From contig NC_043006.1 in NCBI RefSeq assembly GCF_006345805.1, positions 20,336,001 to 20,400,000 of the forward strand: a DNA stretch of 64,000 nucleotides, written 5' to 3'. Below are positions 14,966 to 55,547 of this stretch, one piece after another. The notes beneath the pieces are model-generated. The model saw only the letters and a program-made list of their open reading frames with translations, searched no databases and was not told the origin of the DNA. This DNA is from Octopus sinensis (taxonomy: Eukaryota). The translations under genes and the position numbers were made by a program. The number at the start of each line of letters is the position of its first letter. Position 1 is the stretch's first letter.

Positions 14966-15223
14966 CACATACATACATCTTTCAGTTTGTTTACCAAATT
15001 CATTCATAAGGCTCTGGTTGGTCATGGGGCTTTAGTAGGAAAATACTTGGCCAAAGTGGCATACAATCACACAATGGAGCTGAAATTAAAACTGTGTAGT
15101 TACTCTTTTACTTGTTTCAGTCATTTGACTGTGGCCATGCTGGAGCACCGCCTTTAGGAAGCAAACTTCTAAAAGTAAAAGTTATAAAAATATATAAATA
15201 TACAAAAATTCGAAGTAACATAC

Positions 15224-15305
15224 CGAGACATTGGAGCTAGCAGGTGTGTTGGTTCCATAACCAGATGATGGCAGTGATGCAAAAGACCATCTACGCCCAT
15301 CCATC
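15224..15305 (-). CDS. MAST: MAST kinase exon [27 protein letters not shown]
   Basis: Acceptor tttttcag, donor gtatgt, 82 nt, phase 2 to 0; hallmark MAST motif [20 protein letters not shown]. Confidence 0.97.
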
Positions 15306-16439: not shown

Positions 16440-17039
16440 CTTGCAACTGTGTAGAGCAAAAAAAACAAAAAACAACAAAAATGTACTTTCAAGTCACCAA
16501 GCTGCGTCTATTCTAGGCTTTCAGTTGTCAGCAGTGTTTTATTAGCTATTTGATCAGCCAGCACAATGAAAACCCAGCAAGACTGGTTATTAAAAATGAA
16601 TCGATAAATATGTATGCAGCACATGGAAAAATGACAGTGACAGCTAAGAAGAAGAAGAAGAAGAAAGTGGGAGGTTGGACGGAGCAGAATAGGAAACACG
16701 TTGAGAAGAGGATGGCAAACACGAGAGGAAAATGGTGGAAAGGAGTAAAGCCCGTTGCCTGCTCGGCATGAAGAAATAAGTGGGGGGGAAGTTAGTGAAG
16801 ATAGAATTACAATATGAACTGTTGCATGTTTAATGACTGAAGAGGAAACAACAGAAATATATAGTTCCAGTTTATAAAGAAGTATAGAACAGTTATATAG
16901 ACACTAAAACTACATAGAGCAAAAGTGAAAGAGAGAGAGAATGACTATAGAAATACTATAACTATAAAGAGGTAAGGTGGAGGTGACCATTGCAGATATG
17001 GAGGTCACAGAAGCACGATGTACTATAAGCGATATATGC

Positions 17040-17760
17040 TCATTGCACTGATAAAGATGCAGCGATTAAAGGCATAGTGAGTATCAAGGCACAGTGAGTA
17101 TAGAGGTGTGGTGAGTAGAAGCATAGGGAGTATAGAGGCACAGTAAATATGGAGGCATGGTGAATACAGAGGTACAGCGAGTAGAGGGATGAGTATAGAA
17201 GGGTTGTGTAGAAACAGTGAGTATAGATGCTGATTGAGTATAAATGTGCAGCGAGTAGAAGCATAGTGAGTATGGAGGCACAGTGAATAGAGGCAGGAGT
17301 ATAGAGGCAAAGGGAATATGGAGGCATGGTGAATATAGAGGTACAGCGAGTAGAGGGATGAGTATAGAAGGGTTGTGTAGAAACAGTGAGTATAGATGCT
17401 GATTGAGTATAAATGTGCAGGGGGTAGAAGCATAGTGAGTATGGAGGCACAGTGAAATGAGGCAGGAGTATAGAGGCACAGTAAATATGGAGGCATGGTG
17501 AATACAGAGGTACAGCGAGTATAGATGCTGATTGAGTATAAATGTGCAGCGAGTAGAAGCATAGTGAGTATGGAGGCATGGTGAATACAGAGGTACAGCG
17601 AGTAGAGGGATGAGTATAGAAGAGTTGTGTAGAAACAGTGAGTATAAGCATAGTGAGTAGAAGTACAGTGAGTATAGTGGCACCATGAGAATAAGGACAC
17701 AGTAAATATAGAAGCACAGAGTGTATGAAAGCACTCTAAGTATAGAGGTGCAACATGTAT
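17040..17760. repeat. Complex minisatellite: about 16-bp gagtatagaggcacagt-like monomer organised as a 169-bp higher-order repeat
   Basis: Unit start ggagtatagaggca recurs at 17127, 17296 and 17465; degenerate monomers on both flanks. Confidence 0.9.
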
Positions 17761-18866
17761 GGTAAGCAGCAAGCACAGAGAATACAGATGTGCAATGAAT
17801 GCAGAGGGTCACTGAGTAAAGAGGTACTGTGACTGCAATGGTGCAGTCAGTAAATACATGGGGGTCTGTGCATATGCAAAGTGCAGTAGAGTTAACCACA
17901 AACTTAGGTGTTCAAATCAAGTCAGAGCCTAGCTTTAAAGAAAATCAATAATTCATTTGCAGCCAAGTGAACAACAATTAACAACTAATAGACAGATGCG
18001 TGAACAGAACAAATAAATCTATCTGCATTCAGGCTAATATGACAGCTATTTATAAGGTAGGTTATTTGGCAAGGTGGTACTGTTTTAGATGTCACTTTTC
18101 ATGGAATTTTGCAGAAGATCTCACTACTTATCTATGCCAAAGCCACCAAGTTATGCAACAGAAAGCTTACATATCTCTTGTGAGAGAAGGGCAGCGAGAG
18201 AGAGAGAGAGAGAGAGAGAGTAGATAAAGGGTAGGTTTGTATGTTGTTCAACATTGTACAGTAGGTGAAATGCTGAAAGACGAAGGTTTCACACACATTC
18301 CACACAACCAAACAAGGTGTAAATCTTCACTGGCACACCAAAGAATGTGCATATTGTAGCATGTATTGCCAATAGAAAAAAAGAAAGAAGATAGATAGAT
18401 AGATAGATAGATAGACAGACTCCAGTCAGGTGACTCCAGTGATGCATGATCACATTATGATTATTCCTTGAGTGGGAGTCAAAAGTTATGTTACACATTT
18501 GCAATCATCCACTACAACTCTGAGCAGCAGTGCAACAGTGCCATGCACACATGCATGCATTTTAAAATTTCACTTAGGCATAGCAATACTGAAACCCTGG
18601 TGCTAGAACTCAATATACCATGCTTCAGAATAAAGCAATGAGTGCAGAGCATAATATGAAATTTAAAAAAATAACAAAGGAACAGTAATTGCATAATGAA
18701 CTTAATTCCTGTTCTGTTGTTGTTTCTTTAATTTCACACACACACACACACATTTTTGGGATATATACTTTTAGGGAAGTTGATAGTTATGGCTGGTCAG
18801 AGAGTGACCATTGGTTTTGGACCTATAAAGCGCTTGGCCATAGAGGCGACTCAGACTCACCAATTT

Positions 18867-18919
18867 GAGTCTGATGAGTCACCTATATGACTTTATAGGT
18901 GTGAAACCTATGGTCACTC
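18867..18919 (+). ncRNA. Type-I hammerhead ribozyme motif
   Basis: GAGU-CUGAUGA-GU-CACCUAUA-ugacuu-UAUAGGUG-U-GAAA-CC-uau-GG-UC-ACUC: full core, helix I 4 bp, helix II 8 bp plus a G.U closure with one bulged U, helix III 3 bp, GUC cleavage triplet at 18913-18915. Confidence 0.75.
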
Positions 18920-18965
18920 TCTGACTGGCCATAAAAATATATTACTGCTCTAATGAGCTACAGAC

Positions 18966-19057
<92 letters not shown>

Positions 19058-19059
19058 AC

Positions 19060-19262
19060 AAGAAGGTTTACGAAAATAAACAAAAGACGAAGGCAGGTGG
19101 AGTACAAACAAACAAATGTATTAGTATGCCGCTCAGGAATAGAAATAGAACAAGTCTTTTACGTTTCGAGCCTACGCTCTTCGACAGAAAGATACACAGA
19201 AAAAAAAACAAGGAGAGAAACAAGGAGAGAAAAAAAATGCGTGTAGGAGCTAATGATCTATC
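19060..19262 (-). mobile_element. Penelope-like repeat fragment with minimal hammerhead-like motif at 19155-19192
   Basis: Next to (TA)n; minus strand reads UCUUU-CUGUCGA-A-GAGC-guag-GCUC-GAAA-CG-UA-AAAGA; related copies at 48300-48500 and 54543-54632. Confidence 0.6.
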
Positions 19263-25403: not shown

Positions 25404-25598
25404 TAGGCGCAGAAGCCCACCTTCCACGGGCATGTTCAATGGTCAAAATATTACTACAGTGCTTATAGATAGTTTGACAACAGCCAACTGACCATTCACA
25501 ATGATTACTGGACACAGGCAGCAGAGAAACAAGCAAGGTTTTTTTTCTTCTTTTTTTTTTTTTTTGTAAAGGTGAATAAATAAGACAATCATTCTTAC

Positions 25599-25671
25599 TT
25601 CTTGATATTTTGGAATGGAAACTGGTTGTGAAGGTTGGGTGATGCTTGGCGTGGACTGTCCATAGGACTTC
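25599..25671 (-). CDS. MAST: MAST kinase exon (G)SPMDSPRQASPNLHNQFPFQNIK(K)
   Basis: Pyrimidine-rich acceptor ttttgttttccag, donor gtaaga, 73 nt, phase 1 to 2; matches the conserved MAST SPLDSPR...F.F segment. Confidence 0.93.
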
Positions 25672-48299: not shown

Positions 48300-48500
48300 T
48301 ACGCCATGATAGGTCGTTAGCTCCTACACGCATTTTTTTCTCTCCTTGATTTTTTCTGTGTATCTTTCTGTCAAAGAGCGTAGGCTCGAAACGTAAAAGA
48401 CCTTTTCTATTTCTATTCCTGAGCGCTATACTAATACATTTGTTTGTTTGTACTCCACCTGCCTTCGTCTTTTGTTTATTTTCATAAACTTTCCCGTTAT
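48300..48500 (+). mobile_element. Second copy of the 19060-19262 Penelope-like repeat, opposite orientation
   Basis: Near-identical reverse complement; hammerhead-like motif at 48363-48400 with core CUGUCAA. Confidence 0.6.
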
Positions 48501-52960: not shown

Positions 52961-55547
52961 CCTTTCTACTAAAGATACAAGGCCTGAAATTTTATATATA
53001 TATATATATATTTTACATGTGTGTGTGTGTGTGTGTGTGTGCATGTTTGTTTATTGGCCTCTGTATTCTTTCTGTATAAGAGAATTTTTTTTTTTATTTT
53101 GTTTCCTTTTACACTTTTTAAAAAATCAGTTTTTGATGAAGTCGAATTGCAGTAAAAAACAAACAAACACACAAAACAAAACAAAGCAAAGCAAAGCAAA
53201 AACAAAATAGAAAGTGTAAAAGAGAGACTGCTGAGGTGAGGCGAAACAGATAAATAAGAAATAAATCTGCATCCAATAATGATATGGTGGGGGGGTGTGT
53301 GTGAATGTTTCTATAGAGAGTGTTCTATCTGATGAGTGGCTGGCTGGTGGTACTTAATTATCTTTTTATGATCGAACACCGGGTGGGGGGGGGGGAAGAA
53401 AATATTAAATTAAAAGGATCCATCCAAAGCATAAATATGTGTATAAGAAAAACAAAAGCATACGCGATTAGCAAAAGTTATTTATTTATTGGTTTGCGGA
53501 TACAGACAGAATCCGTCTATGGAAAAATCAGTGATTGGAAATACATAGGAGAGAGAGAGAGAGAGAGAGAGTTTGTGTATCTATTGTGTTTGTGGTGCAT
53601 TGAACATATTGATAAATCAGGTTGATTATTTATTTATAAATTAAACTAGCAGACTGAAGAATTCTCAAGAGGAACGGAATTGTAATTTAGAGACCAATTG
53701 CAGTCATAAGTGAATAAGACTAGACAGCATTTAATTAACCTAACACACACACACACACACACAAATTTAGAAGATCATAATGTATATATACACATGAATA
53801 AAAAATTATGAGCAATGACAATTTATATGTAGCTCACAATGATAGGGTGATGGTGGCGGAAGTTTGTTTACAAGGAAAGTTATGCAAAATGATAAGCAGT
53901 TCAGAGCTAGAATGAATATCTTGTGATATTTATGAGGAAGAATTACATTAAACTGTTTAACAGTAAAATCATTAATACAAATGAAATAGATGTAATTCCC
54001 GGAAGGAAACAACATACGTTAAATAAAACACGTTTCATTAGCCTTAATAATAATTCTTTCCTTATTGGCTACAAGGGCTGCCACAGTAACAATCCTTTGT
54101 ACTACATAGACACCAAAGCCTGGAATTTTCAGAAGTTGATTAAATTGCCCCCCAGTGCTCACCTGGTACTTGTTTTATTGACCCCCCCACAAAAAGGATG
54201 AAAGGTAAAAAACCAACCTCACTGGAATTTGAACCCAGAATGTAAAAACAGATGAAAGGCCACAAAGCATTTTGCCCAGGCATGCCAACAATTTGGCCAG
54301 CTCACCACCTTACTGTAACAACAATCTTTTCTACTATAGGTAGAAGGTCTGAAATTTTTGAGGAAAGTGACCCCAGTCCTTCGATCAACTACAAAAGGAT
54401 GAAAGACAGAGTAAATGTAGATAAAACCTGATCTCAGAACATAAGGACAAAATGTTGCTGTGCATTTTGTCAGGCATGCTAATGATTCTACCAGCTAGCC
54501 ACTGGTCTTTCTACTCTAGGCACACAAGGCCTGAAACTTGTAGAGAGCATAGGCTCGAAACGTAAAAGACTTTTTCTGTTCCTGAGCGTTAAACTAATAC
54601 ATCTGTTTGTTTTGTACACCACCTCCTGTCTTCAAGATAAAACAAAGAACAAACATGAACTAAAACCACACTATACATGCCAACCTCTTGACAAACACCA
54701 TCAAAACTTAAAAAGGGCATATTGCAATCAATGTTATGAATATAAAAGTGAAACTAGCTTCTAATTAAAAATATACTGTTTGGACAGCCTTGCTATGTGC
54801 ACTCTATATATTACCCTTTAGGACAACAAGGACAACTTCTACAACCCCAAATATGGGTTAATTAACCAGTCTGAAATTGAATTGAGAATTGCTAGCAAGC
54901 AGGCGTGGCTGTGTGATAAGAAGCTAGCTTCCCAACCACATGGTTGAACATAAATGACGGGCTTCTTTCAGTTTCCGTCCACCAAATCTTCACTCAAGGA
55001 TTTGGTCGACCTGGGGCTATTGTAGGAGACATTTGCCCAAGATGCCATGCAATGGGACTTGAACCAGGTGATTGGCAAGCAAACATTTTACTACAAAGCC
55101 ATGCCAAGCCAAACGAATGTGTGTGTGTGTGTAGAGAATATACACTCTTTTACTGGCTTAATCACTGAACACATCCTTGTTTGAGCACATTGTATTCAAT
55201 GGTTTTAGTCAACTGTCTCGACCTCTAGTACCAATCCTTATCAAATCACCGAGCTCGGTAATAGATCGTAAATCAAAGCAAATGTTTGTGAACGACACAA
55301 GAGAAAAAGAAAAAAACAATACATAATTACGAACCAATTATTAAACCTGAACTCCTACATGGTCCCTTTGGGTGAGCAAATATTCTAGCATGTGTACCGC
55401 TTGGATTTAGCTGTTATCCTTTCTTACTTGTGCACTGTGTCACTTCTCTCACATTATAGCTTGTGAGAAAACTAATTTCTAACGGATTTTAGTATTGCAA
55501 ATAATAAACCTATCAATAAGTGAATGCGAATATGATGCATATGTTTG

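Follow-up and report, generated by a model that had tools for sequence, protein, structure and literature searches.

An intronic octopus hairpin with two hammerhead motifs is very probably a truncated Penelope-like insertion

The window analysed here, 64,000 nucleotides of the Octopus sinensis genome (NC_043006.1, positions 20,336,001 to 20,400,000), contains an imperfect 148-nt fold-back at 18787-18934 with a hammerhead motif on one strand and a broken counterpart on the other. Is this palindrome a dedicated tiny ribozyme-bearing element, as a first-pass annotation from the letters alone had proposed, or a remnant of something larger? We conclude that it is very probably a 5'-truncated insertion of a Hydra-like Penelope-like element (PLE), i.e., two hammerhead-bearing 3' ends lying head to head and both decaying neutrally. 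This reading draws on observed features: the dispersed family to which the arms belong, its join to an ORF for reverse transcriptase (RT) and endonuclease, the head-to-head layout, the tail on one side only and the mutation pattern.

The fold-back was borne out by folding computations (predicted -88.8 kcal/mol, z -12.4, none of 200 shuffles equally good), and the minus strand folds strongly too (predicted -92.1 kcal/mol). Its claimed size was too small, however. Alignment of copies and the tail score extend the element to about 18761-18967; its right side includes a tail remnant (Table 1), and TC and TA repeats follow. The left arm has a tail score of 16 at a threshold of 24, and its outer end is a short AT run adjoining a CA repeat. 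From the family majority, the left arm differs at 4 of 61 and the right arm at 2 of 60 non-CpG sites. No target duplication is visible at the window locus.

Table 1. Features of the hairpin and its surroundings, in window positions
Feature	Position	Strand	Basis
Left arm, inverted, 5'-truncated copy of PLE 3' end (pLTR), tail-less	18761..18859	-	copy alignment, profile
Broken hammerhead, left arm	18803..18858	-	sequence and alignment
Head-to-head junction of two truncated copies	18860..18866	.	copy alignment
Right arm, 5'-truncated PLE 3' end, 7-nt deletion in loop II	18860..18934	+	copy alignment
Type I hammerhead motif, right arm	18867..18919	+	pattern search and fold computation
pLTR end and PLE tail remnant, two internal deletions	18935..18967	+	alignment, tail score 28
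Upstream MAST exon, DUF1908 model positions 1-23, AG...GT bounded	25598..25671	-	weak E 0.009
Downstream MAST exon, DUF1908 positions 27-56, in frame with upstream exon	15223..15304	-	

In the right arm, a 4-bp helix I (18867-70/18916-19) leads into the core at 18871-77. Helix II (18880-87/18894-901) has 8 bp and a G-U closing pair of G10.1 (18878) with U11.1 (18902), and helix III (18906-08/18912-14) has 3 bp and a 3-nt loop. CUGAUGA at 18871, GAAA at 18903-06 and GUC at 18913 lie where they had been reported, and the predicted cut falls after C18915. The description as a full type I hammerhead holds for the core, where every invariant letter is present, and for the three helices, whose listed pairs can all form; it does not hold at 10.1-11.1, where the pair is G-U and not G-C. 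No other sequence on either strand of the 64-kb window matched a type I pattern in which helix I had to have 4 bp. The damage described for the minus-strand core of the left arm was found as well: C3-A6 are kept (18854-18851), N7-G8-A9 are missing and, at 18818, where the family has a CpG, G12 is changed to A. C11.1-G12 form this CpG, for which the window's right arm shows the C-to-T and its left arm the G-to-A outcome.

The Rfam hammerhead models, proposed earlier as a check, gave no match. A scan of the 64-kb window yielded nothing at gathering level, and at E up to 10 the region 18700-19000 returned no hammerhead family and only five sub-threshold miRNA and snoRNA matches, with the best miRNA scores far under gathering. 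In a computation of secondary structure alone, i.e., without tertiary contacts or protein help, the hammerhead fold had a weight of about 1e-5 in the bare motif and 3e-33 within the hairpin. The right arm is hence predicted not to adopt the hammerhead fold, and its sequestration by the left arm, as suggested before, is supported as a prediction.

The copy count that the first-pass annotation had called for identified a dispersed repeat: the 148-nt query gave 705 first-look candidates in the 2.72-Gb genome, and among the 40 that were scored, the other copies showed 68-97% identity over the matched part. With the right arm alone as query, 407 first-look candidates were obtained and 40 of them scored. 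In the alignment, both arms contain a hammerhead-like segment; the centre varies among copies, and the two outer ends are unequal. Many copies are single arms, whose shared upstream sequence varies in length. At non-CpG sites the median copy diverges by 8.8% from the family majority, and the window arms lie slightly nearer to the majority than this median.

We collected 126 arms (129 deduplicated profile matches minus 3 weak ones from other families) and formed pairs using each arm once. Selected in this way, there were 39 head-to-head pairs versus one tail-to-tail neighbour. Most pairs were found with the palindromic query, which biases pair frequency and leaves the tail and subfamily patterns unaffected. 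A tail of about 55 nt, longer than the described 30-40 bp, was present on one arm in 33 of the 39 pairs; 6 pairs had no tail, and no pair had two (null 15/500). Both arms were of the same subfamily in all 32 typed pairs; 7 pairs were untyped. Junction signatures, which are read off the ends of profile matches and carry noise where copies are decayed, were distinct in 39 of 39 pairs, and arm spacing ranged from overlap to 1051 nt. Of the 57 tail-less ends, 33 lay at TA or another microsatellite, compared with 115 of 1000 random sites. Exactly one core was intact in 14 of the 39 pairs, so that the state seen in the window, one core intact and one broken, is common under plain decay. The intact core showed no preference for the tailed arm (8/33 versus 7/33 for the other arm), and a single pair, L046, had both cores intact. 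In a sibling family an opposite arm was found at 18 of 25 loci, two of which overlap; inverted pieces of the ORF are present at three young sister loci, and the same head-to-head shape recurs in sister families. At another place in the genome (L055/L056, G000:C19), an 828-bp direct duplication carries two identical arms and probably arose either by duplication in place or in the assembly.

Upstream of the arm, longer copies contain a decayed ORF with RT and GIY-YIG endonuclease, which confirms the link to Penelope-like elements made in the first-pass annotation. At 24 of 29 loci picked by endonuclease DNA (the query's own locus left out), an arm on the same strand follows 119-244 nt further downstream. 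In a younger sister family the frame is open over 620 aa, and eight long copies match its RT, linker and endonuclease in the same order. A 210-aa fragment of the ORF had 2621 relatives at E up to 0.001. Pfam found nothing relevant in decayed copies (12 frames, 5 fragments) or in the open sister ORF; in 15 relatives it found RVT_1 once and GIY-YIG once, both under the curated cut-off. A word-based homolog search with the endonuclease fragment gave 0 of 68 candidates and a PDB sequence search 0 matches. The clusters of 10 relatives had no informative names, and the Atlas clusters for the sister ORF were unnamed, HTH_animal and GIY-YIG, at 0.95-0.98. Among 8 + 15 long loci, none was full-length with the ORF flanked on either side by direct pLTRs.

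The clade was assigned from motifs. A CxCX5C linker is found in the L099 translation, and a looser linker pattern matched 27 of 31 long relatives. The endonuclease, judged by eye from decayed frames, is without CCHH and has CxxC and CxH around conserved E and N. DKT and RWK motifs occur in sister copies and relatives, and none was seen in a copy with a window-family arm downstream. The Hydra clade, in the part of Craig et al. 2021 (PMC8557442) available to us, is defined by a CxCX5C linker, no CCHH, CxxC and CxH, and TA-repeat targets. By these motifs, the parent is likely a Hydra-clade PLE; Neptune, the clade to which we had first assigned it, was dropped on clade motifs. Hydra-type elements look abundant in this genome, with 17,330 first-look endonuclease candidates by a loose count. 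A young sister copy (L123:1700-4579 and downstream, G000:C24) has the 620-aa open frame, a truncated copy in inverted orientation with 98.6% identity at the protein level and a tail at one end only; its hammerhead-like motif has, by eye, a U4-to-C core change. Within the window, a weak remnant of the N-terminal part of a Hydra-type RT lies at 54780-54902 (E 0.004).

The PMC8557442 supplement, as far as available, includes Hydra-1_Obim from Octopus bimaculoides. With this element and the Hydra-clade PLEs, the window family shares a C-terminal endonuclease with CxxC/CxH and no CCHH, the CxCX5C linker and TA-repeat flanks. The 3' hammerhead of Hydra-1_Obim moreover has an identical helix III, and its RT stretch is visibly similar, whereas hammerhead helices I and II and the flanks differ (all by eye). 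Since helix III is the same and the other stems are different, these sequences suggest that the window family is likely a sibling of Hydra-1_Obim. A search of the supplement text for four short motifs found none of them; line breaks may hide such motifs, and the family may still be listed there. The window family differs from the Hydra PLEs described there by a long Asn/Ser-rich insert in the endonuclease and by the decay of all copies examined. At L095-L100 this low-complexity insert spans roughly 100 codons between the GIY-YIG motif halves; N-rich inserts are also described for rotifer Penelopes, at positions unlike those of the window family (PMC3846280, in part).

Metazoan PLE pLTRs carry minimal and near-minimal type I hammerheads that resemble those of the window family in their short helix I, long helix II, small palindromic helix III, G10.1-C11.1 pair and mostly solitary truncated copies (PMC4209133, in the sections consulted). 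In contrast to these, the window family is without the extra letter between 9 and 10.1 and has a bulge just after G10.1, and the window copy has G-U at 10.1-11.1. The same sections report opposite-strand hammerhead pairs 100-700 bp apart in Schistosoma PLEs and describe PLE hammerheads of such type as weak even as dimers; according to the available part of PMC11167929, a PLE hammerhead needs the element's protein. An inverted 5'-truncated copy with a tail at one end is an insertion shape described for PLEs (PMC8557442; PMC3846280, both in part). Penelope insertions of Adineta vaga have a head-to-head inverted pLTR and a tail on one end (PMC3846280), and in the anole Poseidon the tail corresponds to the sequence from one RT start site to the other (PMC11167929). 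Both elements belong to another clade than the window family, and in the portions consulted a mechanism in vitro is given for Poseidon only. A recent octopus repeat annotation, as excerpted, has many Penelope families (PMC13282606). Searches of the published literature found no paper on the window family.

The locus is a truncated PLE insertion of an ordinary kind, in which both the type of ribozyme and its arrangement are known ones, and as a locus it has little significance. Rod-like hairpins with a hammerhead on each strand are a routine product of Penelope inversion in animal genomes and may be mistaken for viroid-like elements. The family also supplies counts on the open question of PLE integration, i.e., exactly one tail per inverted pair and both arms from one subfamily. 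In the origin we propose, the autonomous parent would have cut AT- or microsatellite-rich DNA, and reverse transcription would have given a direct and an inverted copy off the same template in one event. One copy would have begun at a distal site, leaving a tail, and the other at a proximal site, leaving none. Both would have halted just 5' of the ribozyme, at a stop point that differed per insertion. On the parent RNA, the hammerhead probably had weak activity, either as a dimer via the palindromic helix III or with protein help.

Between the window family and the sibling family, the hammerhead core and palindromic helix III are kept, and two pairs of helix I have changed on both sides, from G-C to A-U or the reverse. 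Because of these compensatory changes, the alignments indicate that the hammerhead was real in active ancestors. In the sibling hammerhead family (L169-L193; 1719 first-look candidates), the cleavage triplet ends in UA and there is no clear G10.1-C11.1. Core conservation and helix covariation, on which the ribozyme proposal had been staked, gave a divided answer: covariation is seen only between families, with no compensatory change of note within the window family, and the core decays at the rate of its neighbours. Non-CpG mutations numbered 83/1010 in the core versus 310/3517 at unpaired non-core sites in all arms (p 0.61), and 27/228 versus 74/728 elsewhere in an unbiased set, i.e., 28 arms not picked by arm sequence. 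The core was intact in 26 of 88 covering arms, 8 of them also with G10.1-C11.1; in the unbiased set it was intact in 2 of 20, none with this pair. Across the family, 10.1-11.1 is GC in 44 and GT in 52 cases. At the two core CpGs, the full set had 47 CA to 106 TG versus 119 to 128 elsewhere, so that the lethal G-to-A change was under-represented. The unbiased set (12 CA to 17 TG versus 16 to 34 elsewhere) had no such deficit, and the query arm is TG at both sites; we therefore read the deficit as search bias, with weak selection as the alternative. Both window hammerheads are likely decaying neutrally.

As the first-pass annotation had placed it, the element lies in an intron of a minus-strand MAST gene, 10.3 kb long and bounded by DUF1908 exons on both sides (Table 1). 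It had also rightly assigned the MAST-sense orientation to the inactivated left arm. Since the intact right arm is antisense to MAST and predicted to be locked in the hairpin, the hammerhead at this locus likely does nothing. The same intron has a degenerate 17-nt minisatellite with a 169-nt higher-order repeat at 17021-17843. Reads from 3 RNA runs (about 6% of each) and 1 contig set fitted the arms partially, in both orientations and with next to no flank coverage, and paralogous reads diverged from the window sequence at 18934 and 18955. The reads stem from other family copies, perhaps of another species, and are uninformative on the window locus, for which no specific RNA was detected.

Could the short palindrome be a mobile unit of its own, either non-autonomous or a viroid-like circle with one hammerhead per polarity? 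Its rod-like fold, the many short, symmetric copies and the two intact cores of L046 would fit, yet a fixed unit should not have a different junction in every pair, such variable arm spacing and many single arms, nor cores that decay at the background rate. Neither circular joints nor a read-end pile-up appeared in the 4 runs, which held only paralogous reads. We consider such a unit very improbable. The first-pass notions of a dedicated element and of a viroid-like design thus find no support: each arm is a truncated copy of the same retroelement end, and an intact core is no more frequent on the tailed arm than on the other. Variable junctions and neutral core decay speak against a viroid-like RNA, i.e., a fixed circular unit with active ribozymes in both polarities. 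Non-LTR retrozymes resemble the window element, as viroid-like RNAs do, in their type I hammerhead and small size. They are tandem head-to-tail units, however, in the available text of bioRxiv 2026.07.22.740005, whereas the window has an inverted pair with variable junctions that is tied to an ORF. They were rejected because the window has no tandem hammerhead units and the examined loci only the one direct duplication at L055. There is a further, highly improbable route by which short head-to-head PLE pairs with two intact cores, such as L046, could be transcribed, cut in both polarities and circularised to give an endogenous viroid-like RNA from Penelope 5' inversion; if true, this would be a path from a retrotransposon to an ambisense ribozyme circle.

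A MITE or fold-back DNA transposon that resembles a hammerhead by chance would account for long inverted arms and an overall size of about 150-250 bp. We give it practically no credence against asymmetric outer ends with variable 5' truncation, the join to an RT ORF at 24 loci, the lack of a visible target duplication in the window and the compensatory helix I changes. The hairpin might also share the PLE origin and have been kept, as a regulatory double-stranded RNA (an editing substrate or small-RNA source) or as an antisense self-cleaver. The strong minus-strand fold, the complete core letters of the right arm and the slight closeness of both arms to the family majority are in keeping with retention. 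But more than a few arms of the family keep the core anyway, the hammerhead fold has very low predicted weight alone and still less in the hairpin, and the miRNA scores are far under gathering, which makes retention improbable. A decaying, 5'-truncated PLE insertion remains our reading of the locus.

About 230 nt from the hairpin, in MAST sense direction, lies a copy of a second, much younger repeat family (19052-19262, minus strand), with further copies at 48308-48493 and 54544-54624. It gave 604 candidates, of which the best 40 have 91-100% identity. The family has a minimal hammerhead-like motif with an extra letter before G10.1, a G10.1-C11.1 pair and ends at TA repeats. Its core reads CUGUCGA, i.e., an A6-to-U change, and U6 was found in all loci that matched the pattern (18 of 25). 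A natural A6C hammerhead variant is reported as slow in the part of PMC3088659 available to us.
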